A stretch of 64,000 nt of DNA from Bilabrum cf. latius (GCA_965178125.1 OZ237759.1:496001-560000), one strand, 5' to 3'; positions 1 through 64,000 are shown, counted from the first letter of the stretch. A program made the numbers and translations. Notes: generated by a model not told the origin, from the letters alone.

Positions 1-3000
1 TTTCTCGATCTCCCGGGCCAGCGCGTCCGAGACCGCCATTGGGTCCCCACCCCCTGGGGCCGCCCGCAGACTCCGGAGCCCGGGAGACACCTCCGGCGCC
101 GCGCGGCAGTCCTCAGCGGAACATCTTGCGACGAGCCTCCACGGCATGGCGCACCTCCAGCCCCGCCTGAGCACCTCCTCCGTGTCCTCCTCCACGTCTA
201 GGCCCCCGTGCCATACCAAGGGGGCTGAAGTTGTCCGGGCCTGGCTGGTGGAACCGCTGCCGTGCAGTGCTCCAAATGTGGCACCTTCGTGCGATGCACC
301 CATGGTGTTTTGTTCCCCGGGGGTAGGGGAGCCCTCACCCAGCAGTGCGGCTCGCACGGATTCGGCTGTGGGCAAAGAGCCGTCAGCCCCTCCGGCGGCC
401 CAGCGAAGCGGAGGCTGCGGCATCGCCAGCTTGACCATTTGCTCCTCCCTCTCGTCGTCGGAGGGGTTCCCCTGGTCCCCGGGTCCCACCACCCTTCGCG
501 CGCACACCTCGTAGCAGCGAACCTTCGCTCCCCTGGACCGCGGCGCGCTCCAGCGCAGCAGCAGAGAGAAGCCCGTCCCCGCCACCACAAGGGGCTGCCC
601 GGGGACACCTGGCTCCAGGGAGGGCAGACGCACTGCATTGCCGCGCACGGACGGCGCGGACCACTCGTCACACCGATTGCCCCTGGCAGATACCCGGAAC
701 TCGTACCTGCGCCCCTGCCGGAGCCCCCTCACGACCGCTTGGCACAGCCTGCCCGCGATGCCCGTGGTCTCTGGTACGAGCGGGCCGGTCACGCCGGCTG
801 TGCCCCTCCCGCTGGCCTGTCTCCTCATTAGAGCGTCCTGGATCTTGGGACCACCAATGCTGTGTGACGAGTGAGTGGCCGGGGGCAGGGGCACGAGGCC
901 ACGTTCCAGTTCCCACGCCCTCTGCCGGTCCTTGGCAAGCAGACCCTGCCTCGCCCCTGCTGCCTCTGCCCCTGCTCCGGCATGCAGGGAGACTTGAAGG
1001 GCCGCTCCATCCGCGACGTCCTCACTCGTCACACCAGACACCCCTGTGCCGGTCCCTGTGCCACTCTATGCTGCTGCCGTGGGTAGCCCCTGGCCCTGCT
1101 CCGATGGAGCCTCTTGCGACCAGCGCAGCTGCTTGGCCTCGCGCTCGCTCAAAACCACCCATGGATTGCGGCCCCGCCCGCTTGCGAGCACTGCGGAATG
1201 CGACTGACCGTCCGAGGCGCCCGATGTGACACTGCCCGCAAGCTGCTCATCTCTCTCGACTCCTTCTCCTCCTCCTTCTTCATTTTCTTGTCCTCCCTGC
1301 AGCAGGGCAGCCTGGTCCCCTGGCTCCCTCAGGATGGCCTCCTCACCGGTTACAACCAATTCCAGCGGAACCACGGCGGCGCCGGGCACGTCCTTCCACC
1401 TCCCGCGCGACACGTACTCTCCTAATCCTAATCCCGGTGCAGCAGCAGCAGCAGATCTAGATGGTGACCCGGGGCGATTGCCCACCACCGCCCCGCGACC
1501 ATGTCCACCTGCGCTAGCATCGTTGACGTCGATCTCAAGGTCAGACGAACCTTCGCTCTCCGCGGCAGGTTCCTCGGGCCTCTTGGTCGCGACCGTGCTC
1601 GCCCAGCCGCACCGCACGAGCAAGTGCCTGGCTTTCTGCGCGGCCTGCAGCACCCGCTCCAGCGCGGCGCCCTCGAGTGCGGAACCTCCTCCCCCACCCC
1701 CACTGCCACCCCCTACTGTCCCGAGTGCGGCGGTCGCTCGTACCAGCTCGGCGGCTTGCTTCCTCGCCTGCTCCTCGAGCAATGCCCGGCCAGCACCCCC
1801 CTTTCCGATGGCCTCCGACCCCCCGTCACCGGCCTCACTCGTCACATGCAGAAGCTCGGAGGTAGTGGCGCTGCCGTGCGACGCTCCGGAATACCGAGGC
1901 TGTTTTCTGCGACCAGTTCCACCCAGCCCTTGGTTCCGCTCTGCGCGGCGCCTGCGGAACCTCCACCCGCCCCACGCGTCGGACTCGCGACCAAAACCCC
2001 TCGCCGCCCGCTCCAGCCCGTCGCTTTCCGACTCCGAGTCGCTCGCGTCGCCGTCGGGCGCGTTCCCGGCGACGGAGCCCGCCGCCAGCCGAAGCGCGGC
2101 GCCGGCCACCCTCTCCTTTAGCGGAACCGGCAGTCCCTCCCAACTGGTCGCAAACGGCCCCTCCCCTCCGCCTCCCTTCACGCCCGTTGCTCCCCTGAAC
2201 CCCACACAGGCCCGCTGCGATCCTCCCAGCAGCACCTCATCGTCTAGGGGATCGATCTGGTCCCACCCCAGTCTGCCAGTGAGGCCACAACCACTGCTGC
2301 TCTCCCCGCCCACAACATCCCTCTCTTCCTCCTCTCCTACCTTGCTCTTTATCTCATCGATTGCGCCACTTGTGCCCAAACTGCCGCTAGCAGCAGCAGC
2401 AGCACTCGTCATCACAGCCCTGGCAGCCGTCAAAGCGCCGGCCACAGGAAGCAAGGGGACCCACTACGGAACCGGCGCCGCGCGCAGCACGTCCATCGGC
2501 TGCTCCACTATAGAGTGCCCCTTGTTCCCCGCGGAGGATCCTGTGTTCCCTGATCCTCGCCGGCCAGCAGCAGCCGCCGAGAACCGGTCCATCGCTAGCG
2601 ATGCTTGGCCCACCATGCCGACGCTGCTGATGTTGGCCCGCTGCCGGCTGCGGGGCCGACTGCCGGAGGATCCACCCTGCCCTAGCCCCGCCGCTTTCGC
2701 CACCCACCAGCGCTACTTCCGGTCTCTTTGGCTGCCCAGCTTGCTGCGGGGTCTTGCAGCCATATACCCGAGGTGCTGGGCCTGGGCCTGCCCCCGATCG
2801 GAGCCGATCCACCGCGTGGCGGAGATTCCCCGTGTGACGAGTGCGCTGCTCGGGACAGCGCCGACAGACTCTCCCAGAGCGAGCTCGGTCTCCGCCGATA
2901 CGCCGGCCCCGGGGTTCCGCTCGTCTCCCCAGCGCGGCGCCGGTCCCCTGCCACGGACGCGCCTGCATTGGATCCGAAACGCCGCCACGCCGCCCCCGAA

Positions 3001-6000
3001 GGAACGCGGAGCCGCCCAGCGCAGGACGACAGCGCCTGACATGGCATGGTGCGGCAGCAAGGATTCGTCGGCAATTCCGAACGTTCGTCGAAGGCCACCG
3101 GTGGAGTACCTCTGGGCCAGTGCATCGAGCCACGGCTCGTTCTCGGGCTTGCGACCAGCCGAAAGCATCTGCTCGAGGGCCCGCTCCCGCAGTTTCCTAC
3201 CCGCAGCTGCTGCCGCACGCCCAAGAGCCTCGATGGCGAACGCAAGAGGAACCGCGAGGGGAGGCAGCGGCCGTGAGGGGGGCAGGAGGGCGGTGCGGGT
3301 GAGACCAGAGGCCAGCGACATGGGCCCCCAGCCCACCACGTTGCGGAACACAACCCGGAACTGGTACCTGGCCCCGGGGCTCAGGCCGCCCACGGCCCAT
3401 GTGAGTACCTGCCCCTGCGAAACCGCCCGCTGCCCCTGCGCCTTGAGACGAGCCGCCTGCAGAAGCTCCTGGTCGGCCTTGGCGGAGTAGTACGACGTGC
3501 GTGCCGCGCCGCTTTGACCACCCTTGGATCCAGGGGACTCGTCATCCACGGACTTATCTGGTGCACGCGCAAGAACTCCGCGCTCGAGCAGGTGCTTTGG
3601 ATCGGCAAGACCGGAACTGAGCCCCGCAGCCGCCCGCGGGTCCACCTCGGCGCTTGCGTCCCGCCACGCGCCCCACACCCCGTCCGGGCTATCGATTCCG
3701 AGCAGTTTCGCGTCTCTGCCGCTGCTCGACGGCACCGGCTTGTTCCCTCGCGCGGCCTCCTGCGCCGCAATGCGATACCCCTCGCACCGCATCAGGGTCT
3801 TCCTCTTGTTCCTCCGCATCGCCTCTGCCCTGGCGGCCGGGGAGGCTCGCGCCAGTTGGGCCCTTGCCAGCCTCTGCTGCTCGGAGGGAACAGGCGGCCG
3901 GAATACCCTGCCTCTGCGGGTGCTGCTGCTTGCGTCGCCTCCGGAGTCGCCCGCAACCGCGCTGCCGTCGCCCGCAACCGATTCCTCCGGTGGCAGTGGC
4001 ACACCCTTCAGGGACCTCCACAGCCCGGGGTCTCCGTCGGACCCGGAATCGGATTCCTCCCGCTTGACCCCGCCGTAGAGCCGCCGCCGCTGCAGCCGCA
4101 TCCCGAGCAGCCTGGACCCGGAATCGAAAGGCGCGAGGCAGTGCAGCACCACGCCCCTCGGGCGGGACAGCGACACCATCGGCGGGTCGGGCTGCAGAGG
4201 CACGGCGGACCGGACCCTCACCCGGCGGGATACGGGGCTGGTCAAACCGGCGCCAGCGGCGTTCGAGTACTGCAGGCGGAAGCAATGCTCGCTGCCGGGA
4301 TACATGTCGCTCAGTGTGACGAGCGCGACGGGACGCAGGCCGGACGGCCGGTCTGCTGGGGGGACGGTCCTAAACTTAGACCGAATCTCGCTCCATGACG
4401 TGTGCCCTCCCCCTTTGGCCACCTCTCGAGGCAGATCCACCGGGACCCATTCGGCCCTGAGCAGTTCTTTGCCAGTGGGCACGTCCCCACGGCCGTTCGA
4501 GACGTCATCCATAGCCCTCTTCTCCCGGAGCACGTCTGCGTCGCTGGGTTCCTTGTTCCCCAACGAACCTTCGGTGGCGGCATCGCCGGGTTGCGAGCCG
4601 GTCTTGACCTGCCACCTCCACAGCTGGCACCCGTCCAGCGCCCGTCCGTTGGAGCGAGGCAATTCCCACGCGACAGTGATGCTGCTTGAATCGGCAGACA
4701 CGGCGACTGGCGCACGGGGCTGCTCCGGCACGTCAGCTGCAGCCCGCGCCACGTCAGAGGGATCGGACCATGGACTCCACCCCACGGCGTTCCTCACGCG
4801 CCACCTCACCTGGTATTTGGCTCCGGGTCGGAGCGCCGTCACGGGCCACTGCAGCACCTGCCCCAGCCTCGCCTGAATATTGGAGTCAGAACCGGCACGC
4901 CCTGCACCCACAAGCGATGATGATGATGATGATGACGATGACCCACGCCTCGTCACCATGGCCATCGGCCTTTCGCTGCTAGAATGCATCCCTGACCTGT
5001 CCGATCGGATCGATGACTCGTCCCTCACCGGTGGGTCTGCATTGCTTGCTTGAACGGGCTAGGTGGCCCTTGTGGTCTCCCCCGCACTCTCCCTATCGAC
5101 CTGCTCCTCCTCTGTGCCCACGGCCAAGGGCAGCATGGTCACCGTGTGCTGCCGGTGCACCTCCCGCAGTGGCACCCTCGTCCTCGGCGCGCCCTCCCCT
5201 TCCCAACCCGGTGCCTCGTATCCATGAAGACGCGAGTCCTGTCGGGCACCCGGAGGGAGCGATTGCGGCAACGGACCCGTTGTTCCCTGAGTTGTTCCCT
5301 GGTTAAGGCCCGCATTCACGGCACGATGCATCACGGTCGCTTCCAGCGGAACATCCTCGGAGGCGCCGCGCAACCCAGAGAGGTCCACCCTCGAGGGCCG
5401 CGCGGGCCGCCTTCGCGGTGGCGCTGGGGGCCGTTTTCGGTCTCCAGCGGCGCTTGGCCTTGCTGGCTGCATTGCCGACCCAGACTCACAACGATCATCC
5501 GAAGTCTCACTGCCTTGCGGCTGCTGGTCTGCAGCAGCTGCGGCAGCAGCTGTCGATGCGCCATCGTGCGATGCACCCGCCCGCTGCGCCGTCCGAAGCG
5601 CCGCCCTCTGCGCCACCGCGCCCGCCGCTTCCTCCCTCCCCAGCACGTGCTCGCCCCTCCTCGAGAACTCGGAATCCAAAATCGCCGCGGGGAGCACCGA
5701 CGCCAGTACCCTGCCAGGGTCAGCGAGCGGCTTGCCACAGTCCGAGACCAGCGCCACCGCTGCCCCTCCCAAAAACTCGCCCCTCCGGACAGCGGCCCCG
5801 GGATCCATCCCCTACGCCGCGTCGATCAGATCCTGGGCCGGAAGTGGGAGCACCATCCAGCGGGGCGGGTCAGCCGCGGGGCCGGGGCACCAGGTCGGGG
5901 GCAGCCCAAAGCCCAGCATGGTGGCTGCCTCAAGCAGGGCCAGCGCTGCAGTGCGATGCATGCCGCGGGTCAGCTGGGGCCCAGCCAGGTTGGGGGGCAG

Positions 6001-9000
6001 GGACACGGGAGCCCCCTCGGTGCTTATCCCAGAGCGGTACGTGGCGAGAGCGGCCTCTGACGACTCCGGTGACTCGGATGAAACGCCTCCCGTGGGGCTG
6101 CTGCCGCGCACCTGCATGCGCTGCACCTGTTCCAGCACCCACCCAAAGTTGAGGGAATCCTGCAGCAGCACGGTGCCCGCCCTAGCGCCTTGTTCCCTGG
6201 AATCGACCGCCCCCAGCTCCCTGGCTCGCTCCCAGGCCGCGGCCGGGTCACCATGCGTGAACCCAGCGGTGCGGCCGAGCTTCCTGGCCCTGACCCGCCT
6301 CCTCATCTGGGCGATGGAGCGCTGCAGCGGCTCCGACCCTGGGATAGTCTGCCATGGGTCCAGCCCACTACGTCGCACGATAAGGCCGTGGGTCCCAGGC
6401 CGCACGGCGTCGTCGTGTCGCCTGGAGTGCGGCTCGAGCTCCAGTGCGGAAGCAGGTGTTGCTGGCGACTCAGTCTCGCTCGGCCTCAGGTCCACGACGC
6501 TGGCGGGCCGTCTCTGAATCTCTGCATACTCTGCGAAATTTCCTGCAGCCCCACCAGCCTCGCCACCATTGCTCCTGCGACTGCCAGAAAATTCTCCCGC
6601 TCCTGCCGCATCGTCATGATCGCGCCCCGCTGTTTGATTACTCGGAGCCAAAATGCTGCGGTGCACCGGGTCACGAGTGGAAGCACGGAACAAACTGGCC
6701 TCGCCCGCACTCGTCACACTAGATGGCACCTCAAAGCCCTCTTCCGACTCTCCCTGCTGGCAATGCGGCTGATTGTGATTGTGCTGGCTGCCAGCGGCGG
6801 GCCTACGCCCCGACGTGGGCAGTGCTGGGGCTGACGCCGGCACCACGCAGCGCATACTGCCTGCACCAGCCCCCTTGGTCCTGCCCTAGTCACTCCTGCT
6901 CTTGCTCCTGCTATTATAGTCAGCACCGATCGTGGTCCAATTGAACCCAGGCTCGGTGGCCAAGTCGCCAAGACCGGGCAAGGTTGCGAAACCAGTGGGG
7001 TCAAACGGCACGTCATCCAGGCCGATCTACGAATCGCCCTCGGCAAGCGAGCGAACCTTCTCTAAAGCTTCACTGAGCTCACTCGGCACCTCGTGCTTCT
7101 TCTGCTCCAGGTGCGCCAGCTTGTCGCTCAGCAATCGGAGCCAGCGCCTCGCGTCCTCCCGCCTGTCCTGGGTCACCTGCCCCATGCCCTCCTGTTGCAG
7201 GAAGGCGAGCGACTCCTCGGTTTCTAGCTCCGAGTCGCTGTCGTCCACGTCCGAGGCCCACTCGGGCCGTCCATGCAACGAGGCCCCCGCCCCCTACGGC
7301 TCCTCTTGCCCTGCGGGCCGCCAGTGAAACGGGGCGCGGATCCGCTTGCGGTTGCGGTGTCCCGGGGTCGAACCCGGCTGCGAGGACGTCCACCTTCTTT
7401 TTCCTGTGCCCTCTACTGACGACCCACCAACAGCCAAGTCGGCCTCATTTCCGGTTTTGGGTTCCTCTTGTTCCCTGGCGTCGCTCCCAGAGTCGCTGGC
7501 CTCGAGCACTCGACGCGTGGGGGCACCCCTGACCCTGCGGATCCGGAATTCAAATCCGAGCACCCCGGCCCCGTTGGTCCTCGGCACGCACCCCACGAGT
7601 CTCGCCGCAGACGGTGCCACCACCAGCACCATGGGCGCGGGGGGCCTCCTGGGCCTTGAGGCCGGCACCCTGAACCAGGAGGATGCCACGGCGTCCCCCC
7701 ACGGCTGCCAGCGGTTGAGGGCGCTCTGGAAGGCAATGGTCGAAGGCGTGAGTCCGGGCTCTGCCTGGGCCGCCAGGCCTAAGGTGTGACGATCGCAGAG
7801 CACCTGGAATCGGACCCGGAATCGGTACCGCGTGCCCGGCAGAAGCGGGGTGCAGTCAGCGTACAGCCCCCTCTGAAGAGACTCCACCATGGCCCCGCTC
7901 GTCTGCCACTTCTCTCCCTCTCCCTCTTTCTCTCCCTCTTCCTCTTCCCCCTTTTCAAATCCAGTCTTACGTGTGCTAGCAGTGTTGGATCCGTCTCCCT
8001 CCTTGCCTTGTGTCCCCTCTGCCCGCTTATAACTCGATCCATCGACGAACGTTCGCTCGTCCTAGAGGAACACCATCTGCAGCTGGCTTTCTTCGCGGTA
8101 CTTGTCCGGGTCACCATCCCTCAGCACTGCCGCCAGCGGTTGCAACCAGGGAGGCGGGGCCGGGTCACCGACCGCAGGGGACAGTGCATCCATGCCTCGG
8201 CTGTGGGCCACCGCGGGGGGCACGATCAGGGCGGCACCCAGCTGCCTGGCAGCTTGCACAGAGCTGTCGTCGGTTCCAAAGAATATGGTCAACGGATCCG
8301 AATGGTCATCCCCCTCGGTAAGTTCCGCAGAGGCGGCGCTGCGCACCCGCATGCCCTCGGCTAGGACGTGCCTGGCTGCCTCCCGGCAGGCATCCACGTC
8401 CGGCTGGCCGCCCCCACCCGATTGCGCGGCGCCTGCGGAACCTGCTTGGTGTGACGGCACCGTGAGCTCCAATGTATCATCACCCCCGCCATATCCACTT
8501 GTTCCCTGGCTCCCATCCAGGGTCCGCCGAGGAAGCAGCCCACGGAGCACAGCCGCGACTTCGCCGACCCTGTGCCTCCAAGGTGTCACTCCGGCGGCAA
8601 GTGACACCACGGGATCTTCTTCATCGGCACCAGCGCCTCGATCCAACCCTCTGCTTCGTTGTTCCCTGGCCCGCTGTTCCCCGAACACGTCTTGCTCCGT
8701 GGCACCGTCCAGAAAATCGCTCCTCTTGCGCTGCGTGCTGGCCTAGAACCGAATGTCCACGGCCGCATTGACCAGGTCCTCAAGATCAGGCTCGGTCCTT
8801 GATTCGTTGCCACTACCGCTCTGATCACGCCGACGCACTGCCGTCTCTCTCGCCAGTGCCTTTTGCAGGTCATGCCATTTCTGAGTCGATCTCTCCCTGA
8901 GCGTCCTCGCGCCCCAGGATGACCCCAGCACGGGGTCATCCCCGGAGAGCACCCGCCGGACCCCTCGCCTAAGCATGCGGAGGAATGGGAAATCCGGAGT

Positions 9001-12000
9001 GGCCCATCCAATTCTGGCTCCGGATTGGTTGCAGTCCCTCCGCCAGGTGCGCACGACCCGCGGCGCGGGCGGGGTCAGTACAGAGGACGATGCGGGGGAC
9101 CGCAGGCCCCACCCGCGGCCGTTCCGGGCCACCACCCTAAACCGGAAGACCCACCCGGAGTTGACCCCGGGGATGGTCAGCGAGTGCACGCCGGGGGGCA
9201 GCGAGTCCACGACGGTCTCCCACCTTGGCGGCGGGGCGCTGGCTTCCCGCGCTAGCTGGGAATGCATGCCGACACCTCGGCCGTGAACAGAGCTGAATTT
9301 CTCGTTCCCCTAGGGGATCATCTGACCAGCCATGCCATCTTCATCTCCATATTCATTCGCATCCTCGCCCTCTTCCTCATCCGATGTCGACTCGTCTAGC
9401 GATTCCTCCTCATCTTGTTCGTCTTCAACGTCATCGCTACCGCGCGATGTGCCTGGCCCTGTGCTGCTGCCACCACCCTTACTGTCATCTCGACGGCTCC
9501 ACCTGCCTTGACCAGCCACCCTTCTTGCATCCTCTTTGGCCACCTGCCCCTCCAATGATCGGAGCATGGCAAGGTCAACTCCCAGCGCACCAGCAGCGCG
9601 CATCATTCCAGAACCAAGATCAGAAGCATCCGTTGTCGTCTGCCGTGCACCGGCATGCGATGCACCTGTCCGATCAACGGCATTGGCAGCACCCTGCTAC
9701 CTCGACTAATTCTTGCTCCGAATTGCCACGTCATCTCGCTGGCGGTGCAGCGCGACTTGCCGCTGAGCATGGGGTGAGTCCCTCTCCACCGCCTCCTGCG
9801 CCTTCTCCTCTCGCCTTTCTTCTGCTGACAGCAGCCCGGGCCTTGAAGTGATCGACTGTCTGCCTGCATTCTCCGAAGATAGGTTCGTCCCATGGCGCAG
9901 GATGCCTCGAGTGGGACCAAAACCAGTCGAGGCCTTTGACGAAGAGGCAGCAACCCGCCGTGCAGCCTCAACCAGCACGCTCCCGCTCGCCCTCACTGGG
10001 TCAATCCAGGAGAGAGAAGACGACGATGACGACTACACGGAGTGCTGAAACTCAACGGATCCGTTGGATCCTGCCTGCACGACCCCGAGTGCCTCGATCT
10101 TGGTCGATCTCGGCCTCAACCGTCCGAGCGGGCCCGCGATACTCGACCGCACCAGGCCCAGCCGCCGCTGCGGATCCAGATCTGCCGCCGGTCCCCCCAG
10201 CACCCTCGTAGGGAGCTGCTCGGTGACTTCACTGCTCCCACCACCATGCTGCCGCCCCGATCCTGACCCCTCCGAGATGGACGGGCTCGAGAGGGGTACC
10301 TCCCCCTCCTGCCCTGTCTGCCCTGTCTCCACAGCGTCGATGTTGATGGACTGCTCGCCGTACCCCTCCAAGTCGACCTGTTTGCTGTTGGCGGCGGCGT
10401 CATTCCTTCGCATCCGCATCACTCGACGAGTTCTCCGCCGCTCTGCCTTGTGCCAGGCCCACAGGATCTGGCGCTCTACGGCGTCTGACTCAGGATAACG
10501 ACTACGACTGCTCAGCCGCTCGTCTCCTCCGGCCTCCCCAGGACGACTCGCAGTCTCTGGGCCTCCTGCATGCTGCTGCATCACCAACTCGATCGGAGGG
10601 AGCACTCTGTTGCTACTCTCCGCGTCAGTCTCCAGAATACCATCGGCGTCTGCGTCTGCACCAGACTATCCCGCCAGCATGCGTTCTCTGGCAATCTGTC
10701 GACTCTGCCTCTGCTGTTGTTCCCTGGCATGCATGGACGCATTCAAGCGCGCAGTGGTGCTCGCACTCGCTGGACGATCTGCTCTGGACCCTATCTGCAT
10801 TGCATTGCGGCGAAACGCCTCCTCGTATTCGAACGTCGCCAGCGCCAGCTCGGGACACGCTGCCTCCCACTCGCGCCTGTACTTGCGAATCCGGTCTTCT
10901 TTCGCTCTCTGCTCGGCCACTCTGGCGATTTCTAACGTGTGCTTCCCATCCAAGTATATTTGGCGCTTCTGCATGACCCACGGCTCCCAGCGGAAGAGAC
11001 CTTCGCCGTACCACCGCCCCGTCCCGTCAGTCACCATGACCCCACCTAAGCTGGTGCTGGACAGGTCCTGCAGCCTCGGCTCTGCCTGGGAGACAAGGTG
11101 GCCAAACTCGCCCTTTGACTCGCTGGAGCTACTCCCTTGGCCACCCATCCGCACCCGGGCCCCACCCGATGCCCCTGTCACGGTCGCAGATGCACCCCTG
11201 CCGCCGACGGGGGCCGGCCCCAGCATGGCTCGGGCGGCCGCGGCTGCCCCACTAGGATCCACCATGGTATTCCCGCACTCACTGACAAGGGTCCACCAAG
11301 ACGGCATGTTCTACTTATTCTGTGCATTGCCTTGTTCCTTGGAATCGTGATCCCTTATTTCTTGTTCCCTGACGAACGGCTGGCTGGGCAGCCGAAGGGA
11401 CAGCTTTCTCAGCCCGCCGATCTCACCCCCTGATGAGCCCGCCGTCCCGGCTATTACCCCCGTACCAGCTCCAGACCGGGGCGTCCCCCCACGCCGGGGT
11501 CTATCTAGCTCCGAGTCCTCCCCCCTACCACCGGTCACCGCCCTCACGGCGAATGGAGCGGCCGCGCGCCTGACGATGCGGTCCTCATCGCTGGAGGAGC
11601 TCCCGTCCTCTGCCCCATCGCCCTCCCCATGATATCGTTTGCTCGATCCATCGTTTTCTATTCCATCATGCACCCTGTCATCTACATCCGATTCCGAGTC
11701 CCCGAGCATGACCCCAGGAGGGGGCCGGAAGCCGGACCGGATTGCAACCAAAGTGGCCGTGCTGGCAGTGGCACCCCCGGGCACTGCACCTGGAGTCGCC
11801 GATGCGCGGCTGCCTGCAGCACCCATGCTGGATTGCGATGCGTCCGCTAGACCCACTGCGCCGCCCATGGAGCCGCTTTCTGGCACTACGTCTTTCCAAT
11901 TGCCTGACTGTTTGCCACCCATGCGCAAGTCCTGCTCGCCGTCGCCCTAGTCCTCGCCCTAGTCGTCGCCATCATCGCTGCCATCGCTATCTGATTCCGA

Positions 12001-13570: not shown

Positions 13571-13783
13571 TGTAGTGGCACAAACGCCCCATTTGCACTT
13601 GGTAGCAGTGCACTGCTGCGACTAGAAGCAGAAAGGCAAGTGTATGCCTGCAAAGGAAGGTCCGGCAAAAAGTAGACGCCTCAATTCAAGTGCGTTCCGT
13701 TGATTGTGGACTTACATTGTCGTAGCTGGCTATCGAAGGCCAGGTGGCTTCGGAAGGGCCCTGGCAAACCTTGACAGGGCATC

Positions 13784-14372
13784 ATGGAAAAACCTAGTGC
13801 TTCATCGAGTTCATCAAGAGCGTCATAGTCAGCGTCGCAATGGACGCTTGAATCTCTACCACCAAGATTTATTACTGGGCCCGGAACCTCTGCGGTAAGT
13901 CGCATGCAACAGAAATTTCGCTCAATCCGTCCAGATTCCTAGAATCCCTTATACTGCCATCCTACACGCCCGCACCGCATCGCAGGATATAGTGGATCTG
14001 GTGTCTGCCGAGCAAAAACTGCATGCTGAGATCGAAGGGCGGCTTCGAGCAGAGTACTCACGCACCGGCGCGAGCTTCACCGAAGACGAGCTTGCCGCTG
14101 ATGTTGAAATGGAGAAGCTGAGGATCCGATGTTTTGAGCATAGAAGGGATCTGCACCCAACCTTCATTAGTGGGGAAGACCCCGTGGAGCACTGGGCGAC
14201 TATCAGAGTCCCGGCAGACGAAGAGGCAGCAACGACGCTCGCTCACGCCGTCAGCCAAAAGCAAAGCGTGGCTTTGGATGTCCTTGCGTCGGGCAAGTTG
14301 CCAGCGAGCGACATGATACTGGGAAAGTCTGTAGCCAGCGAAGGAAAAGGGCGGCGAGCAGTCCGAAGATAA
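13784..14372 (+). CDS. Hypothetical protein (~165 aa); exons 13784-13894, 13986-14372
   Basis: ATG at 13784, one in-frame TAG, GTAAGT donor at 13895, CAG acceptor ending at 13985, phase-0 join into the 13992..14372 ORF, TAA stop. Lies head-to-head with the ankyrin/FN3 gene. Confidence 0.65.
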
Positions 14373-23718: not shown

Positions 23719-23751
<33 letters not shown>

Positions 23752-24996: not shown

Positions 24997-25028
<32 letters not shown>

Positions 25029-35656: not shown

Positions 35657-35695
<39 letters not shown>

Positions 35696-47117: not shown

Positions 47118-47151
47118 CGCCACATAGACAAGCCCCAGCCCACTCCCTGCA

Positions 47152-52416: not shown

Positions 52417-52637
52417 ACTGACCGCAGCAACAGGCACTGCAGTCTTCGCACGCCCTTGGCTTTTGGCATAAAGCCGGCTTGTGTTTAAATACCATACTTT
52501 GCACGTTACAGAAATGTTGTTGCGGTTGCAACCAACTCGTGATCGTCATCTTTCGAATTCCATACGCAGAGGCCGTGTGAACGCACACAGCTACATTTAG
52601 CTGAAGGTATCCTCACATTTTATTTCAAAAGGGTTTG

Positions 52638-55600
52638 ATGCGGCAGAGACGAGTCATACCATCTGATCTAAACGATGAACCGCACGATGACGGTCACATC
52701 GAAATCAAGAATACGATCGAACTAGCCCCGCTGAAGGGAAACGCAGCACAAGGTCCGCCACGGCTGCATGAGAATGAAGATCTTCATCTCAGTGATAAGC
52801 AGGGACCCGGGGTGTCTTCTTCCCGTGGCCAAGCTGCCGACGTATCCAACGAAACATGCCTGGGTGCAGTAGAGCTCGCCTGTCGATACGTACTCGCTGC
52901 GACTCGTCGCGATGCAAGGAATTTTATAGTTGGAATGGCGGTTATTGCAATCGTCGTCGCGTTCTGCGCTGCTGTGCAGTCGGCGATTGAATCCACACCA
53001 GTAAGCCAAGTGGAGTTTTTCCGATCACTGATCCGATGTTTCAAATCTGACTTCGGTAACGATTAAGAAGTTCTCTATTACCCCATTCATGTTTCTATGC
53101 CCGTTGCTTCATGGTTTGCAGGCAATCTTTCTAAAGCTCGCCGAGGACACGATCGGCGAGGCGGATCTGGTGCTTCTGCCCGCAGCGCTCCCGGTCACGG
53201 TCGCTGCCAACGCGATGCGCAGCGCGTACAGCTGTGACGGGAGCGCTGGCTGCCTCTCATATGATTAGTTTCTGTCGATCACGAATGGCAGCACGAACGG
53301 AAGCAGCCTCGCGCCGGGCACCGCACTCGCTCTGCCGTTGCTGAACAGCACCGAAGTGGAGCAGGCGGTCGCAACCGTTGGTTCCGCTTCCGGCGCGGCG
53401 CCGCGCTGGCTGCTACTGGGCAGCCTGCTGAACGCCAAGGAGCGGAGCCGCAACACCTCGGTGCTTGTGCTAGCCCTGGACAGCGAGGCGGAGGAGAGGA
53501 TGGACCTGGGGAGGCAGTGGGGGAGGAGACCCCTGGGATACCTGGAGGCCTACGCTGTGAGATAGATAGATAGATGGGTGGGTGGGTGGAATGTGTGAAA
53601 TTGTGGTCGTGTGTGGGGGAGCGCTTCCGTGCTCGTCATGGTGCGTAGTGGGGCTCTCGTGTTCATTCGCAGTGTATCCTTGCTTGCATCTATTCCTCAA
53701 CCTCGGCCTCGGCCTCGTCCTCGAGCTTCACACCGCAGTCTGCAAGCGCACTCGGCGAGATAGGGGTGGAGGGTGGCATGGGGGAGAGAGCTATCGTGCG
53801 GATCGACCTGCTCAATATACTCTCTCTGTTCGGCGGAACCGGCGCTGCGCTTGATGGTGACACCCTCGATAGCGCTCAAGTGGCTAGCCAGCTTGTGCAG
53901 CTCCTGACCCTGGCTGGCGTGCAGCCTCCGGGCGTCCTTGCAGAGGCGGCAGGGAACAACGGCGTAGCCAGGGTGCCGGCTGATGAGCTGCTCCTAGCCG
54001 TTGAGACTGTGGCCGAGCAACTCGGAGTTGACTTGAACCAGACGATCAGCATTCCCACCGGGATCCCCGGCCTGCCGCCCATCGTGTTCAACCTCCTGCA
54101 GCTTGCAGAGGACGCTGCAGCTGGGCAGACCGTGGAGGTGGACATCGGTGGACTGATCGGGGCGCTCTTGTCAGCCGGTTCAGGAGGGACAGGTGCGACA
54201 GGGGATGCTGGGGTCGGTGACGGTGGGCTTGGCGGGCTAGATGAATTGCTTGCTTTGGAAAAGGAAGTGACGGTCGTGGATGGGGTGGACCAGCCGAGGG
54301 GCAAGTGGCCCGCCGCATTGGGCAACGTGGTCGTACTGGAGGCAAAGGAAATACCCGAGTGGATCACTGGCGGTGTGCTGGATGTTCTGCAGCCTCTCAC
54401 AAGCGGGCTGCTGGCACCCGTGACCGAGGCTCTTGGTCTGGAGGAAGCCTTCCTAGCTGCTGAAGAGACCGTTGAGAGTTTCGACTACGATGCCATGAAG
54501 CAGTTTGCGCTGCAGATCAACGTCATGATTGATGACAGGGAGGATGTGTACATCAGGGACAGCAACAGGGTGGAGCCAAGGCTGGTGCGATTCAGCGAGG
54601 AAGTAGCGGGTGCGCTGGGTCTGGATTTCCAAGGGACCTACACGGTCCCGTTGGCCGCGACTCTGGCTCAGACTTAGTTCATCGCCCTGTTCCTGGACCA
54701 GATTCTGACGGCAGTGATTTTCGTGCTTGCTCTGCTGGGTGCCATGGTCATGTACAGCCTGGTGGTGGGTGACGTGGAGGAGAAGACTTACGAGTACGGC
54801 ATGCTGAGGGCTCTGGGGCTGCGGTCCTTCACGCTGGTGTACGTGCTGGGGGCGTAGACGCTTGCGTACATGGTGCCTGGCATGCTGATTGGCCTGTGCG
54901 TGGCATCGCTGCTGCACCTGGTGGTGAGGGCAGTGGTGGTGGACCTGTCCGGTGCCGTGGTGCAGCCCGTCATGTGGCCGTCTGCGTGGATCTTCGGGGT
55001 AGTGTTCGGCATGACCGTGCCGGCCGTAGCAAACCTTGTGCCGATCCGCAGGGCCATGGGATCCACGCTGCGGGATGCTCTCGATCTGTACCACAACGCT
55101 CTTAACGACGTGACCGTGCAGGTCACGAGGCTGACGGAGAGCTACCTGAGCCTGCCCTACACGGCGCTTGCGCTGGTGTTCGTGATCGTGGGCTTCGTGA
55201 CGTACTACCTGCTGCCTTTGTCCTTCGCCATCAACAACTTCGCGCTGTTCCTTGGGACCCTGACCGGCATCCTGCTGTCGATGATCCTGGGCCTGGCCCT
55301 GATCGCGCAGATGCTGCAGGGCCCCCTCGAGCCACTGGTGGCGCGCCTCTTCCTGTGGGGGCCCAACGCGCCTCTGCACACGGTGGTGACCAAGAACTTG
55401 GGCGGGCATAGCCGCCGCAACAGCAAGACGTCGTTCATGGTGAGCATGACGGTGGCTTTCGTGCTGTTTGCCGGGGCCATGTTCGCGCTGTAGGCCAGCA
55501 GCATCCAGAACAACGTGAGGATGTTCCTTGGGTCAGACATCGTGGTGCTGTCGCCCGACTTCGGTGGGGGCGGGGACGATGACAGCGATGATTCGGCGGG

Positions 55601-58034
55601 TGGCACGGGGACCACACCTGCCGGGGTGGGTGCAGTGGGCAGCGAGGAACAGGCGGCGGGAGTGCGAGGGGAGGATCGGCTGGCCGTGCTGCCCCAGCGC
55701 GCGATGATCCGATCCCTGGAGTCGCTGATGCAGCCGCGGGAGGCGGATCCGGAGAGGGGCATCCCTGGCCGGCCCGCGCTGGTGGAGGGCTACACGTTCG
55801 AGACCTTCCCGCTGGGGTCGATCGCGGGCGAGGGCGGGTACAGCGTGAGTCAGCTGGGGCAGCCCGGGGGCGTGTACAGCACGCAGGTGGTGGGTCTGCA
55901 GCGGAACTACCTGGACGTTGCGTACTCTGAGTTCGCCATCCCGACTCAGTGGGCCAGTAACCTGGGCGCTCCGATCGACAGCGAGGATGCCTCAGCCAGC
56001 GACATCCCCGCGCGGCCTCCCGGCAGCGAGATGGTGGAGCGGCTGGTGGAGGACCGAGGCCGGCTGCGGCTGCCCGTGGAGGCCCTGGGGCGGGCGTCAG
56101 GGGGCAGGCAGCTGCCACCGCTGTACTCGACTGCCAGCGGGTATCCCGTGGGAGTAGCGTGCGGATACAGCAGCATATCGGATCTGCTTGAGCTGCAGGC
56201 TCAGCTGGCCGCGGCAGGGTCGAACGAGTCCCTGCCAGTGTACGCGGGGGATCTCGAGTGCGCTCTGGCGTGTACGATAAGTGCCAATGAGTCGCGGACT
56301 GGTGCAAGTGCTAGCACAGGCAGCAGCACGGACACGCGATGCCACCGACTCAGCACGTTCAACGCCTCGCTGGCGCAGGAGCTGTCGGACAGGCCCTATG
56401 GGCAGTACCTGGACGTGTTGATGACGGCGGCCTACTCGGGCCAGCTGAGCGTGGGGGTGGAGGCGCCCATGCTGGTGTACCCGGGAGAAGGTGGGTCACC
56501 GTTCCTGTCCAAGATGAGGGCCATGGTGAAGAAGCTGCCAGGGTTCTTCTTCTCCACCTATCGGGCGGGGGCCTTCTTCGCCCCCACGGTGGTGGGCATG
56601 TCCACTTTGGCCAGGGCAGCGGACGAGCTGGATGCCAGGGAACAGAGGTCACTCGTCACAGACCTGAGTCCCATAGACCCCGGCGAGCTGGATGCACTGC
56701 CCGGCACGTGGCAGTCCAGCCCTGCCTGGTTCGATCAGGGCGCGGTGGTGCCTGCCGGTGGAAGTGCATAGACCCTGCCCCCAGGCGTGTACCCATACGT
56801 GTCTGGGTCCAATGTCACCTTTGCCGCTGCTCCTCGATCCAGGCCCTTCAGCTCCTCCAACGGGACTGGATCCTGGGTGCCCTCGAATGCCAGCCAGTGG
56901 GAGCTGCTGTCCGACGGGAGGACCGACACGGGCCTCGAGTTCCAAGGGGGCCCGCCGGTGCGGCTGGCCACGCTGCTGCCTGCTTGCCGGGTGGCGACGG
57001 GGGTGCGTGTGCTCGCGGGAGGCGGGTAGCTGGATGTGACGTCAGTGGGAGTCAGGGCGGTGATGGAGGAGGTAGCCGAGCAGGCGGCTGCGGGGCGGGT
57101 CAGCACCGAGTCCTCACTCGTCACACGTGGCCTGGAGGCCCTGCCCGACTCGAGCGTGCTGTCTGCCTCGGGCCCTGGTGCTTCGGTGAGGTGGCACGCG
57201 TTCGAGCTGGGGAACAAACTGGCGGCCCGTCGGTTCCTGATCGACCTGGGAGCACTCGGGGCGGCGGGTGATGGTGGTGATGGTGGTGGTGGTGGTGGTG
57301 TGGCATCGACTCCAACGCTGCGTGTGTACGGGTTGCAGCTTCGGCTGGAGGCAGGGTCGGCCTCGTGCTCGAGTGCCCAGACGGCGGGTGCACCCCGGGG
57401 GAGTGCGGGGGAGGACCCCTCCCTCCCCCAGGTGGGGTCATCGGCCCTGGGTGACGCCTCCCTAGACCTGCCCAAGCAGAGGCTGCTGGTGAGGATGAGG
57501 CGGGGGGTCACTGCGGGGGAGCGGAGGGCCGTGGTGAACGCCCTGCGAACGCTGGTACCCGACGATCGGTTCCAGGTGCAGGATACCGCCAACCTGCTCG
57601 AGTCCACGGAGCTGGCAGCCGAGGGCATGCTGGTGTTCTTCAACGCAGTGGCCGTGATCTCGATCGCGCTGTGCTTCTTCGCGGCGTGGCTGAGTTTCTC
57701 TGCGACGATCCGGGAGAACTCGAGGGAGCTGGGGGTGCTTCGGGCCCTGGGGCTGACCGGGACGCAGACCACTGTGGTGTACCTTGCCGAGGCGCTGTCG
57801 GTTGTGACGAGTGCATTCGTGCTGGGCACGGGGATCGGTGTGCTGGTGAGCGTGACTCTGACGCTTCAGTTCAATCTGTTCACGGAGATGCCGTTCGTGT
57901 TTGTGTTCCCCGGCACGCTGTTCGGGACCACGCTGGGGCTGACGGCTTTGGCGGCGGTGGTGGCGTCGTACCTGCCTGCGCGGGGGCTGCTGCTGCTGCC
58001 GATCGCGAACGTGCTGAAGGGAAGGCTGGACTGA
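52638..58034 (+). CDS. FtsX/MacB-like (ABC3, DUF214) permease family protein (~1,697 aa); exons 52638-53000, 53122-53556, 53739-58034
   Basis: Two FtsX-type signatures (DVEEKTYEYGMLRALGL and TIRENSRELGVLRALGLT) and multiple TM helices. Track ORFs 53766, 54870, 55515, 56787 and 57036 are in frame across TAGs. GT-AG introns; TGA stop. Confidence 0.88.
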
Positions 58035-60209: not shown

Positions 60210-63200
60210 TCAAACAGTCTCAGCCGCGCTGGCCATGCCATCCCCTATGCCACTGCTCTCTTTGGCACGACCATTGGTTACAGCTTCCTTGTTGCGTCTC
60301 CCACGCCCTTCGCGTGCAGGGACCCTCTCATCATCGGCAGCAGTCTCGCTTCCATCCGCATCCGCATCCGATCGAGCTGCCTGCCTAGTTCTAGACTACC
60401 CCGGAGATGTTACGCCGCGATCTGATTCGTTCGCGTGCCCGTTGTGCGATCCACGGTCATCACCCTGCACTGCACCGCCATGCAGCGCACCATTACCCTC
60501 CTCATCTGCATTGCCGTGAAGTCCCCACGGCCTCTGCTCTGGGCCAAGCTCGGCAAGCAGCAGCGGTAGCAGCACCATGCCATGCACTAAGCCGAACCCA
60601 ACCATCAGCGCAAACATCTTAAACAGCGTCTAGAAGCCACCGCTCTGGCTGAACGCCAGCACGAAAGTCGCCAGGAGCGTAGAGAACCCCCCATTCGCCA
60701 CTGCAGCTCCAGTGATGGCCAGCGACTCGGCTGCTCGGTCCGGCTTGCTACCCGTCGCGCAGCAAAAATGCTAAGCAACGTGGGCGGAGTAGTCGCAGGC
60801 GAATCCCAGCGCCATCACTAAATTGACCAGAGTTGCCACGTTGATCGGCAGTCCAAGCACGGTCATGCCTCCGATGATATCCACGCAGGTCAGCGCCACC
60901 ACACCGGTCGTCAGCAGTGCTGCCCTCGGGGGCTGGAACATAAGCATCGAGACCAGCACGGCCCCGCCTGCCAGCAGCAGGTTCTGGATGGTAATCCGAT
61001 CGATCGCCGCATACCGCTCCAGCCACAGGAACTCCCCCATGAACGCCACCACGTCAGTATCCGATCCACCGGTGGATGGGGATCCTGCTGCCGCCGCCTG
61101 CTATCGCGCCACTCGCTGCGAAAGTTCGATCGCATCTCTGGAGTCCAGCATGCGGTCGAGTCGTTTGGGTGTGTCGGCTGGTGGCCGCACCGTGACGACC
61201 GCCCGCCACGCGAACAGAACGTAGTCTCCCCGGGCCATGGCCGCCTGGTCGACATCGGCAGCCGAAACGGAAGGGCCCAGCCTTTCGAGCGGCTGTCCAT
61301 CGGCGCCGCGCCATCTGCGGAACCTGACATCCCCTTGCAGGTCCCTCCGCTCAGAATCGACGAGCTCGAATGCGGCCTGGGCCAGTACCGTGGAGTTCCG
61401 CGCAGCCGACCCTGCAGCTCGGGCGGACTGCAGCAACACTACCGTGCGGTTGGACAGGGCAAGTACCGCTGATGCTTGTTCTATGGTACCGCTATCGCTC
61501 TCTGCAGCAGTGTCCAAAGTGACATTCCTTACCAATGGACCCAGGCCAAGGGTCAGCTGCAGCGGCATCTCAGTGGGAGGAATGGAACCGGGCACGAGGA
61601 CAGCGGCGGCAGCCTCAAGAGCTCCAGACAGACCGAGCTCATATGACGAGGCAAAATCTGTGGCAGAGACATCGCTGATATATTCGTCCGGACTGGCTAG
61701 GTCATCCATACCCGACCCCGCCTTCCCGCCCTCCTGCCCGATCGCCGCTATGGTCAGCCGGTCTGCCCCCGCCCCGAACAATTCCGCGGACATCGTCAGG
61801 TATCGGAAGGGGATGGAACCCTCGGCAAGGTACTCCTTCTCGTCTAGCCCCTTAGTGACCATAGAGGCCTGCCAGCCCGCTATTGCCGCCAGAGCCAGGA
61901 ACCCCAGGATGATGGTGCGGCGCTGGCACGGCGACCGAATGATCGGAGCCACGTGATGCCTCACGAACGCACCCAGGCAGCGCTCCCCTTCCCACGCCTG
62001 CGGGTCGTGGTCCAGCGATCCATCGGATGCTCGGTCTTGGCTAACCTGGGCCCCTTCAGCCGATGGTGTCACTGCCTCAGATTTGTCGATGCTCTGATCC
62101 GTTGAGCCTTGGGCCGGGGCTGCCTGCTTCTTGTCAAGCGAGTCGATAGCACTGTTATTCCCGCTGTCTCTTGGCGCACTGCTTGGCGCCTGCTCCTACC
62201 TCGGTTGCACCTAGCCGGGCGTGCTGCCATCTGCACCCGGTCGATCCCGTCCATCAGCACCGACGGTGTCATCATGATCACTACCTGTCCAATTGGCATC
62301 GCCTTCCTCGTCTTGCCAGTGCACGCATGGACAGCAATCGACTCGGCCGGCCATTCTCCTCCGTGAATCGAGCACCAGAGCAGCGCAGAACGCAGTGACC
62401 TGTAGCACAAGCACCGCCACCACCGCAACCGCCGAGGTGATGCAGAACTGCCTGATGGCACCAATGTCGATTGCAGTCCCAATGGCGAAGGCGAGGGCAT
62501 CAGTGATGGAAGTCAGGGTAACGCTCGGCCCTGCCTCTCTGAGCGTGCGGGCCAGGCGCAAGGCAAGGCGATTGACGAGGGCACGGTCTTTGTCGTCTGC
62601 CTCGTCTGACGACTTCGAGTGGCTGTCGCCATTTCGATGCGCTGGCTCAGCCATACCCTTGGGACACACATCCGCTGGGTCTACCTGCCGAATATGCTCT
62701 TCTTGCTTGTGCTCTGTGGGCGGTGCCCGCGCCCCATTCACGTCCGTCGCTGGATAGGTGGCATCTGGGAATTGCTGGATCCCGCTCCTGGATCTCGCGA
62801 GGCCACGGGACGATTCACCGCTTGCAATTGCAGTTGCACTCTCGGAGTGATGCTACGGACCTTCGCGTCCCCGTGCACGTGACGCTTGCGTCTCATCCTA
62901 GCCCCCCTTCTGCTGCTGCTGCTGCTGCTGCTGGGCAAGTTCCTCCTATTCATGAGCAGTGATTCGGTCCCACACAGCGGACAGAAGCAGCCCGTCGTCC
63001 ACGCCGACCGCGACCAAAACGAAAAACGCCAGCTAGCTCATTGTATTGAACGGCACGCCAAAGTATCCGCCAAGCCCAAAACTGATCGCCAGCGACCCGC
63101 CTACGCACCCTAGCACGCACACCATCGCTAGCATCACTCGGGATCGAACCGGCGGGTAGTCTCCCAGCACAAGAGCGACATACACAATCATGAGCCCCAC

Positions 63201-64000
63201 CGCAGCACCAACCAGCGGCGTGTCAGCCGCGACCATGCGATCCTACTCATCTTGGAACGTTCTGGACGCGAAGGGAAGCACGTCGATGGAGTCGACGAGC
63301 GCACTGTAGGACCGCGGGGCTACTTGGCTCCAGTCCGCTGCGAATCTCCGCAGTCCACGCGCTGCGTCCTGCCCCAGGATTGCATCCTCTGCTTGGATTG
63401 ACTCGCGGCCGTCTCCACCGCACGAGTCGGGGCCATAGGCAGGGCTGGTCCTGGCTGAGTCTTGGCTGCTGCTGCTGCTGCTGCCGTCAGGCCGGACGGG
63501 CGCCGCGCTCCCGAGGTCCATGTCAGCGGAACCGACCGACTGCGGGCTGCTCCTCCTGAGCACTTTCCTGCCGCATTCCACCGCGTCGTTGACCCTCTGG
63601 ATCCACCTCTCCTCCAGGTCGCGGACGCGGTCTCTGTCAGCCTGCGTGGGCGGTGACTCGAGCTGCAGGAGCAGCTGAGTGGCAGAGGCGCCGCGCAATT
63701 TACCGGTTCCGCTACCCCCTCCACGCTGCGCGCCACCCACCACTGCGTCCACAGGCACCGGCACTCCCTCCGGGGTTCGAAACCCGGAGGAGTCGTGCAC
63801 CGAGTGCCCCGGGGTGAGTGCAAGCCCGCCCGCACCAGCAGCATCCACGCGCCCCAGCAAGTCGGCAGATGCGAGCAGCCCAGCCACGCCGGCGTTGCCA
63901 CTACCGGGCGCACCTGCCTGGCTGCTCCCTGCCGCGGCCCCCATGGCCGCCCCGACTGACACCTCAACACAAGGGCCTCCCGCGTATGCCCTCTGACAGC
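60210..64000 (-). CDS. Patched / NPC1-like sterol-sensing-domain (RND) membrane protein, 5' end outside window
   Basis: One frame from >64000 to TGA 60212-60210 with only TAG interruptions. SSD motifs FNTMS[TAG]LAFFVLVAVGVDD and EAGPSVTLTSITDALAFAIG, IRQFC. C-terminal motifs NLVMALGFACDYSAH, NGGFSTLL and F[TAG]TLFKM...HGMVLLPLLL. Confidence 0.9.

Follow-up and report, generated by a model that had tools for sequence, protein, structure and literature searches.

The genes of the window, by which we mean the whole 64-kb stretch of DNA analyzed here, are interrupted under the standard code by TAG exclusively, with no TAA, no TGA and no frameshifts. This raises the question of which genetic code the window is written in. 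An earlier note on the same DNA had proposed a nuclear code in which UAG specifies glutamine while UAA and UGA remain stops. Homologue likelihoods, codon pairs with a close orthologue, transcripts and gene ends all agree with this proposal, and the interpretation is supported in a sample of about 17 genes within 64 kb. The window (58-69% GC) very probably comes from the nuclear genome of an aerobic eukaryote, GC-rich and with introns, that reads UAG as Gln and terminates at UAA and UGA.

To describe the reading frames we took eight long, non-overlapping frames, five on the minus strand (1-13446, 27433-29415, 34430-39265, 47152-52545 and 60210-63998) and three on the plus strand (17215-21558, 22867-27201 and 53265-58034), and counted codons from the first ATG of each. 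They comprise 13,542 codons with 99 in-frame TAG, no TAA and no TGA; the two zeros follow from the construction of the frames, and the weight of the observation rests on the existence of frames of such length. The other two frames of the same eight stretches contain 174 TAG, 63 TAA and 429 TGA, and the expectation per random frame is about 31 TAA and about 214 TGA. TAG is equally common in frame (99) and in the other two frames (about 87 in each); it makes up 0.73% of the codons in the eight frames and about 13% of the Gln-type codons. The longest frame spans 4482 codons when TAG is sense, as compared with 821 when the standard code is applied or TAA is taken as sense. Reading TGA as Trp was also tried and rejected: it produces longer frames, but these overlap one another on several frames and appear chance-like, because TGA is the commonest stop triplet in GC-rich DNA. 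In-frame TAGs are found within the RFC, GH123, FtsX and sterol-sensing domains or the regions homologous to them.

The left edge of the window is occupied by a giant ankyrin and fibronectin-III protein frame (1..13446, minus strand; Pfam fn3 and Ank) that runs off the window. The earlier note had reported at least 20 in-frame TAGs in 1-13155, and exactly 20 were counted, all of them within that interval. A small spliced gene follows (13663..14372, plus strand; intron 13894-13984 with GT..AG borders, TAA stop at 14370-14372), for which the Pfam search returned no family. The gene for a replication factor C small subunit of the RFC3/5 type (14548..15794, minus strand; Pfam AAA and Rep_fac_C, TGA stop) carries its TAG (15663-15665) in exon 1 (15647-15794), which is separated from exon 2 (14548-15548) by an intron at 15549-15646. 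Next to it lie a COQ5/UbiE methyltransferase gene (16079..17356, plus strand; Pfam Ubie_methyltran, 3.3e-73; intron 16289-16380), a long low-complexity frame (17215..21558, plus strand; eight TAG after the first ATG, TGA stop) and a long frame with a Gln-rich tail (22867..27201, plus strand; TAA stop), upstream of which introns are found at 22025-22512 and 22800-22903. This last frame holds 12 TAG, nine of which fall in the tail at 26665-27195, matching the count in the earlier note. The GH123-like glycoside hydrolase gene (27433..29415, minus strand; Pfam GH123_cat, 2e-17; 2291 homologues) has nine TAG after Met-101 of the frame.

Further to the right, four TAG occur in a multi-pass membrane protein frame (32775..34238, minus strand) for which Pfam gave no family, and 21 in a long low-complexity frame (34430..39265, minus strand), where a 33-base repeat has three units at 38172-38272 with a TAG in each. 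A tyrosine-recombinase-like gene with a Phage_integrase domain (41652..42761, minus strand; two TAG, TAA stop) is flanked by two 1.5-kb duplicate segments. Another long low-complexity frame (47152..52545, minus strand) has 12 TAG and includes a tandem 45-base repeat. The FtsX-domain permease-like gene (53265..58034, plus strand; Pfam FtsX, TGA stop) contains five TAG in its homologous part, 53775-58031. At the right edge, a Patched/NPC1-like sterol-sensing-domain protein (60210..63998, minus strand; Pfam Sterol-sensing and Patched, TGA stop), whose 5' end lies off the window, matches the solved NPC1, NPC1L1 and PTCH1 and holds 11 TAG, including the one at 63033-63035. For this TAG and the one in the RFC gene the coordinates given earlier were exact, as were those of the stops: TAA at 14372, 27201, 27433 and 41652, and TGA at 14548, 17356, 21558, 45994, 47152, 58034 and 60210.

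TAA serves as the stop in five of the 13 tabulated genes, including the four just listed, and TGA ends the RFC, COQ5, FtsX-like, Patched-like and further genes. Every gene in the window can end without recourse to TAG, and the five genes whose C-termini are supported by homology (RFC, the COQ5 domain, GH123-like, FtsX-like and Patched-like) all end in TGA or TAA, the TAA of the GH123-like gene falling at the homologous C-terminus. Nevertheless, in three of the 13 genes a TAG precedes the TAA or TGA by only a few codons: two in the frame with the Gln-rich tail, four in 17215-21558 and eight in the COQ5 gene (TAG at 17330-17332). By a binomial estimate with TAG at 0.73% of codons, the chance of at least three such late TAGs in 13 genes is about 0.03, and in a genome with the standard code roughly that proportion, three of 13, of the stops would be expected to be TAG. 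From these late TAGs, UAG could still terminate in some contexts, and one may imagine a dual use like that of Condylostoma or Blastocrithidia, with UAG read as Gln inside genes and as a terminator near some mRNA 3' ends; on this point contigs cannot show where translation ends. However, late TAGs would also be expected if former TAG stops had survived only near a back-up stop, and with the gene ends described above we regard dual use as improbable.

The residue that TAG stands for was assessed in a main set of homologues at 55% identity or more (18 sites) and in a distant set below 55% (15 sites). In the main set, 11 of the 18 sites show only or mostly Gln, and the site-weighted log-likelihood is -32.8 for Q, -44.7 for E and -54.1 for K, placing Q ahead of the next residue by 11.9 natural-log units; in the distant set the values are -42.7 for Q and -45.2 for S. 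The other seven sites of the main set show E/S, A, T, E, R, V and E/K, the last being the RFC site. This number is about what one expects for a variable Gln site, because a Q of the query is conserved as Q in 53% of cells at that distance. Distant GH123 homologues (30-45% identity) have mixed residues at the TAG sites and only weakly favour Q, and a decision called for the closest relatives. Q is found at FtsX site 573 in all five covering homologues (one at or above 55% identity, four below). One TAG has Ser opposite it in a relative that is 95% identical.

Two individual sites had been put forward in the earlier note as evidence for Gln. The RFC site was placed correctly, but it is variable (E 38, K 28, S 8 and Q 7 among homologues of at least 55% identity) and by itself says little about Gln. 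At 63033 the note had matched the Patched-like protein to PTCH1; a direct PTCH1 match at this site was not seen, and the position has Q in the solved NPC1L1, E in NPC1 and Q in two close relatives. The interchange of CAG and TAG among paralogues and repeat units, also claimed there, was recovered. Three RING/IBR-like genes read TAG, CAG and CAG at one position: copy 1 (39907..40542, plus strand) has an in-frame TAG at 40381-40383, and opposite it stand CAG 44937-44939 in copy 2 (44478..45098, plus strand) and a CAG in the third paralogue (30874..31680, minus strand). One unit position of the tandem 45-base repeat at 47650-47742 likewise reads TAG, CAG and CAG.

A comparison at the level of codons is offered by L001, an FtsX-like orthologue on a metagenome contig with 73.6% identity to the window's copy. 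It is open over 656-5032 only if TAG is sense, contains nine in-frame TAG, and ends in TAA where the window's copy ends in TGA. CAG or CAA stands opposite TAG in nine of the 14 TAG-bearing columns, about as frequently as Gln is conserved as Gln (27 Q-Q pairs). That TAG might encode a residue other than Gln (Glu, Lys, Ser, Leu, Tyr or Trp) could be argued from the E, K, S, R, T, A or V present at some sites in relatives, from the RFC site with mostly E or K, and from published codes in which UAG is Leu, Ser or Glu (excerpt of PMC11687900). Set against the likelihood difference among close homologues, the codon pairs in L001, and the fact that every paralogue and repeat case is CAG, this reading is very unlikely.

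In relatives TAG occurs at different positions of the same genes, and seven of their protein fragments, predicted with the standard code, stop exactly before a TAG of the window (P0209, P0121, P0273, P0274, P0275, P0289 and P0280). Environmental relatives at about 60-95% protein identity have a like TAG pattern, and the pattern is therefore a trait of a clade, not of one strain. The more distant FtsX-like orthologues L002 and L003 (about 40% identity), located on metagenome contigs of 64-70% GC, are open under the standard code and have no in-frame TAG.

A code in which UAR as a whole is Gln (NCBI table 6 type), with TAA merely scarce from high GC, may be suggested by the fact that TAA is the rarest stop triplet of the window (179 and 193 on the two strands). 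Judging by the CAA count, however, a TAA used in the manner of TAG should occur about 31 times in frame. In-frame TAA as Gln, which the earlier note had named as the observation that would speak against its own proposal, was not seen in the eight frames (0 of 13,542 codons). Reading TAA as Gln lengthened no frame of note, and TAA ends five of the 13 genes, at the homologous end in the GH123-like gene, and the L001 orthologue as well. In this sample of one window we consider a UAR code to be practically excluded.

The fate of the TAGs in transcripts, a check that the earlier note had advised, was followed by comparing contigs (not raw reads) of the runs X1 and X5-X7 with positions 3701-23700, a stretch that leaves out the GH123-like gene and the Gln-rich tail. 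That X5-X7 contain RNA is deduced from their spliced contigs; none of the runs listed is recorded as RNA, and X5 is labelled 'RNA? (probably DNA)'. Five GT..AG joints are present in X5-X7 contigs and absent from X1: 13893/13985 (X5 and X6), 15548/15647, 16288/16381 (X5, X6 and X7), and 22024/22513 and 22799/22904 (joints in X5, X6 and X7). The spliced RFC contig of X5 (14532-15548 joined to 15647-15816) retains the TAG and has no other letters. TAGs at 6886, 7027 and 7294 of the giant ankyrin frame are included in an X5 contig piece, again with no other letters; six TAGs of 17215-21558 are found in X5 and X6 pieces, and the late TAG of COQ5 is covered by pieces of X6 and X7. Altogether, 12 of the 28 TAGs of the compared stretch lie within listed X5-X7 pieces, and for the remainder the support is a blank table of 'other letters'. 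No letter in X5-X7, three RNA-bearing runs from two studies, differs from the genome, and a 27.5-kb DNA contig of X1 has no differences from the window. Where covered, editing or splicing-out of the TAGs is excluded. The idea that unusual splicing or RNA editing removes or alters the TAGs ahead of translation, or that they reflect pseudogenes or assembly errors, draws on nothing beyond the 12-of-28 coverage and has a negligible probability, given the spliced RFC contig, the identical DNA contig, breaks that are exclusively TAG, and relatives with TAG elsewhere in the same genes.

Turning to the decoding machinery, the tRNA scan found no tRNA genes in the window, the Rfam scan found nothing there, and the window has no eRF1 gene. 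No tRNA was found by the scan in the two closest related loci, and across 14 related loci the sole tRNA was a tRNA-Ala(CGC) on L012. By analogy with the published mechanism, UAG would be decoded by a tRNA-Gln(CUA), which would pair with UAG and not with UAA and would be one base away from tRNA-Gln(CUG). The eRF1 would be predicted to have lost or weakened recognition of UAG while retaining that of UAA and UGA. According to an excerpt of PMC5304391, CUA is the sole anticodon that reads UAG but not UAA, and the GTS motif of Iotanema eRF1 has the substitution T32G.

As to the host, the earlier note had suggested a bicosoecid or other stramenopile, a guess that the RFC gene supports only in part: among the best 120 matches listed, the closest named one is Cafeteria (62% identity), and in the best RFC tree Cafeteria roenbergensis is sister to the query group, with branch support of 15-52 in this one gene. 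The query group itself, which unites the query with P0001 and P0004, has a support of 99 and falls outside the supported ochrophyte and oomycete clades. Colp12, the sole alveolate among the RFC rows, does not group with the query. Placing the query group in a clade with Fungi was rejected by the AU test (p-AU 5e-06; RFC, one gene). The presence of COQ5, an enzyme of ubiquinone synthesis, presumably means that the mitochondrion is aerobic, in contrast to the reduced organelles of fornicates.

Our literature search, which was thin on subscription journals, found no report of stramenopiles or bicosoecids reassigning UAG in the nucleus, and no paper describing an altered nuclear code among bicosoecids. 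That the UAG-only-to-Gln code arose independently in a so far undescribed clade of GC-rich, aerobic protists near the bicosoecids is a tentative reading to which we give slightly less than even weight. If it is true, several environmental data sets already contain the clade, and the change would be bracketed by its relatives with the standard code at about 40% protein identity. The TAGs just upstream of present stops would then be remains of former TAG terminators. The reassignment of a stop codon ending in G in a GC-rich genome would also not fit codon capture under AT pressure. A further case in a GC-rich, intron-rich and apparently free-living aerobic protist would provide an independent datum on how eRF1 can lose UAG while keeping UAA, and would bear on whether splits between UAG and UAA require AT pressure. 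There is a practical consequence as well. Standard-code gene callers fragment the proteins of this organism by cutting them at TAG, and therefore its genes and those of its relatives are mis-annotated in public protein collections; the genes of the organism and its environmental relatives need to be called again with table 15.

A split between UAG and UAA is rare in nuclear genomes; the excerpted literature names a single fornicate, a handful of ciliate lineages, and one case each in a rhizarian (Leu) and a green alga (Ser). NCBI table 15 ('Blepharisma nuclei; some phages: TAG=Q') corresponds to the window in having TAG as Gln and TAA and TGA as stops; the table is a description and not a lineage, and nothing links the window to ciliates. 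The window is not phage DNA, as its spliceosomal introns and its genes as long as 13 kb show. Most ciliate genomes are AT-rich, whereas the window has 58-69% GC and carries its genes on a long contig. Among ciliates, the Phyllopharyngea and Protocruzia tuzeti resemble the window in reassigning UAG alone to Gln, and repeated independent origins are reported (PMC11687900, in excerpt). The aphelid Amoeboaphelidium protococcarum also reads stops as Gln outside the ciliates, but does so for both TAG and TAA (excerpts of PMC6299283 and PMC5304391), whereas TAA is a stop in the window. An aphelid origin, considered for this stop-to-Gln code, was rejected on two grounds, the use of TAA as a stop in the window and the AU test on RFC, which speaks against a clade with Fungi.

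The same reassignment in a non-ciliate protist is known from the fornicate Iotanema spirale, with UAG as Gln and UAA as stop; the excerpt of PMC5304391 describes the same combination of a tRNA-Gln(CUA) and an eRF1 change, the tRNA part being a prediction there too. The window differs from Iotanema in encoding COQ5, and no fornicate appears among the named RFC matches in the best 120 listed. The nearest named RFC homologue among the matches listed belongs to Cafeteria roenbergensis, a bicosoecid stramenopile. The UAG-only-to-Gln code is itself already known, both from NCBI table 15 and from several published occurrences (PMC11687900, in excerpt), and the window probably represents a new lineage for this known code.

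Setting TAG as sense gives frames of 4482, 1798, 1612, 1590, 1448, 1445 and 1263 codons, and these seven, with the 661-codon frame of a GH123-like gene, tile the window without overlap. The standard code yields no frame longer than 821 codons, and setting TAA as sense leaves this unchanged. Read from their first ATG, the eight frames comprise 13,542 codons, with 99 TAG, 494 CAG and 156 CAA but no TAA and no TGA; the two remaining frames of the same DNA contain 174 TAG, 63 TAA and 429 TGA. The observation that TAG is equally common in frame and out of frame, whereas some 31 TAA and 214 TGA are absent in frame, reveals that TAA and TGA are avoided and TAG is not. An earlier note had proposed, from sequence alone, that UAG is read as Gln while UAA and UGA remain stops; its coordinates proved exact on checking, the observation is real, and we consider the reading well supported.

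Genes end in TAA (14372, 27201, 27433 and 41652) or TGA (14548, 17356, 21558, 45994, 47152, 58034 and 60210), and the TAA of the GH123-like gene (27433-29415, minus strand) falls at the C-terminus common to full-length homologues. Of 13 genes, three have a TAG shortly ahead of the final TAA or TGA, by eight (17330-17332), four (21544-21546) or two codons (27193-27195), an excess for which a binomial estimate gives about 0.03. One reading is that these are former TAG terminators, now followed by short read-through extensions, which survived because a back-up stop was close by. The same excess would favor a dual use in which UAG retains a stop function in certain 3' contexts, and the assembled contigs fit both readings equally; we consider such dual use rather unlikely. 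A code in which both UAA and UAG specify Gln is rejected for the window: with TAA and CAA in the same proportion as TAG and CAG, the frames should contain about 31 TAA codons, but none is observed, and TAA ends genes. Reading TGA as Trp also lengthens frames, but these are stacked over several frames of the same DNA and fit chance, TGA being the commonest stop triplet here.

TAG was rendered as X in all homologue queries, which kept the searches free of bias. Among homologues with at least 55% identity, Gln is the sole or majority residue at 11 of the 18 covered TAG sites, the other seven having E/S, A, T, E, R, V and, at the RFC site, E/K. Query Gln is conserved as Gln in 53% of the cells of these alignments, so this proportion is as expected for a Gln codon. 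The site-weighted log-likelihood, with substitution frequencies derived from the same alignments, is -32.8 for Q, -44.7 for E and -54.1 for K in this class, and below 55% identity (15 sites) Q is again best (-42.7 vs. -45.2 for S). Distant GH123 homologues (30-45% identity) carry mixed residues opposite TAG; judging from these alignments, the closest relatives are decisive for the residue. The site that the earlier note cited in the Patched/NPC1-like gene (60210-63998, minus strand) is Q in two close relatives and in the solved NPC1L1, and E in the solved NPC1. Site 573 of the FtsX-like protein (53265-58034, plus strand) is Gln in all five covering homologues, of which one belongs to the class with at least 55% identity and four to the class under 55%. 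Residue 999 of the same protein (TAG at 56769-56771) is Ser in the 95%-identical homologue P0280 and Glu in the orthologue on metagenome contig L001, which hints at a variable site or at UAG decoding being tolerated as more than one residue.

The interchange of CAG and TAG between paralogues and repeat units, also noted earlier, is borne out by three copies of a RING/IBR-like gene, which have TAG (40381), CAG (44937) and CAG at one conserved position, and by a 45-base tandem repeat (47650-47742) with TAG, CAG and CAG. The Gln-rich tail of the ORF at 22867-27201 does hold nine of its 12 TAGs. Three 33-base tandem units (38172-38272) have in-frame TAGs at matching positions, one per unit, so TAG was copied as an ordinary codon during repeat expansion.

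To examine the mRNA, contigs of four coded sequencing runs were matched to positions 3701-23700. Run X1 gave a 27.5-kb contig with even depth and zero differences from the window, which identifies it as DNA and probably as the source. X5, X6 and X7, from two other studies, gave short contigs whose depth fluctuates strongly. These contigs lack 13894-13984, 15549-15646, 16289-16380, 22025-22512 and 22800-22903, five skips with GT..AG borders that are absent from X1. The skip at 15549-15646 coincides exactly with the RFC intron predicted from sequence, and the spliced X5 contig (14532-15548 joined to 15647-15816, with no other letters) retains the RFC TAG at 15663-15665. At least 12 of the 28 in-frame TAGs of this region fall within X5-X7 pieces, among the pieces listed (625 more exist), and no letter differs from the window in any of the four runs. 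This evidence consists of assembled contigs rather than raw reads, and unspliced pieces could come from DNA; nevertheless, the spliced contig and the empty difference table exclude, where covered, the editing or splicing out of TAGs that the earlier note had singled out for checking.

The code extends to relatives. L001, found in one metagenome scan (6992 bases, 58% GC), encodes an FtsX-like orthologue with 73.6% identity and nine in-frame TAGs that is open across 656-5032 only when TAG is sense; under the standard code just 2960-5032 is open. It stops with TAA, its window counterpart with TGA. Aligned by codon with the window (53775-58031), 14 columns have TAG in either gene, nine of them opposite CAG or CAA and the others opposite GTG, GAT, CGC, GAA or GCC; none of the 14 is TAG in both. 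Seven public fragments of closer relatives (P0209, P0121, P0273, P0274, P0275, P0289 and P0280; 64-99% identity), by contrast, stop at the residue immediately preceding a window TAG, exactly what standard-code gene calling would yield. TAG and CAG/CAA appear to replace one another rapidly. Together with L001, the fragments show that the trait is shared by a clade found across several environmental data sets. The source field of P0274 and P0288 holds "-", the mark for window-encoded proteins; as both nonetheless carry Q opposite window TAGs, we take them, with some doubt, as close relatives. The orthologues on metagenome contigs L002 (2-4528; 64% GC, 40% identity) and L003 (1031-6184; 70% GC, 39% identity) have frames that stay open in the standard code, with zero TAG over about 1500-1700 codons; given a position on a tree, they might delimit where the code change arose.

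The window has a GC content of 58-69% and genes up to 13 kb long with spliceosomal GT..AG introns. Pfam matches identify a giant ankyrin/fibronectin-III protein, RFC3/5, COQ5, the GH123-like hydrolase, the FtsX-domain permease-like protein, the Patched/NPC1-like sterol-sensing protein, a tyrosine recombinase and the three RING/IBR-like copies; there are also several long low-complexity proteins. Two RING/IBR-like genes lie on a duplicated 1.5-kb segment (39430-40944 and 43977-45500; 97.3% identity, 32 mismatches, three gaps), and the third (30874-31680) is on the opposite strand. A tyrosine-recombinase-like gene (Phage_integrase domain, 41652-42761) sits between the duplicates, and the arrangement may represent a mobile element resembling Cryptons or DIRS, or else a segmental duplication of recent date. 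Long microsatellite-like runs encoding Ala-Pro and Thr-Gly occur within coding frames (23785-23992, 24560-24617 and 16720-16763); the run in COQ5 is an insertion inside the methyltransferase domain, and such repeats raise the depth of bin 16374-17040 about 40-fold in all runs.

As to the host, the nearest named homologues of the RFC protein (14548-15794, minus strand), among the matches listed, are two Cafeteria roenbergensis proteins (62% identity); P0001 (99%) and P0004 (79%) score higher. A 49-row tree was drawn from the best 120 matches, with P0002, P0003 and P0013 excluded for odd length and most environmental rows also left out. In it, the query, P0001 and P0004 group with support 99, join Cafeteria and other environmental rows at support 15-52, and fall outside the supported ochrophyte, oomycete, plant, animal and fungal groups. 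The AU test, on RFC only, rejects a clade with Fungi (p 5e-06). A bicosoecid or stramenopile host is plausible on this one gene. COQ5 (16079-17356, plus strand) presumably indicates an aerobic mitochondrion, which argues against a fornicate host.

Our evidence comprises the 64-kb window and sequences of relatives, and tRNA and Rfam scans of the window found no tRNA gene and no Rfam family. In the full-text literature (few subscription journals, without supplements) we found no nuclear UAG reassignment for a stramenopile or bicosoecid. The novelty may lie in the lineage and in its being GC-rich, with some environmental relatives that share the code and others, more distant, that lack it. The code itself is already known, being that of NCBI table 15 ("Blepharisma nuclei; some phages: TAG=Q"). 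The portions of PMC11687900 available describe UAG-only reassignment to Gln in Iotanema spirale, two phyllopharyngean ciliate lineages and Protocruzia tuzeti, to Leu in a rhizarian and to Ser in Scotinosphaera; in Amoeboaphelidium both TAG and TAA are Gln, according to sections of PMC6299283 and PMC5304391. According to the latter, CUA is the sole anticodon able to read UAG and not UAA, tRNA-Gln(CUA) is one mutation away from tRNA-Gln(CUG), and Iotanema, whose code is the same as the window's, has eRF1 with T32G in the GTS motif. By analogy, the most likely machinery here would be a tRNA-Gln(CUA) reading UAG and a changed eRF1, as in Iotanema.
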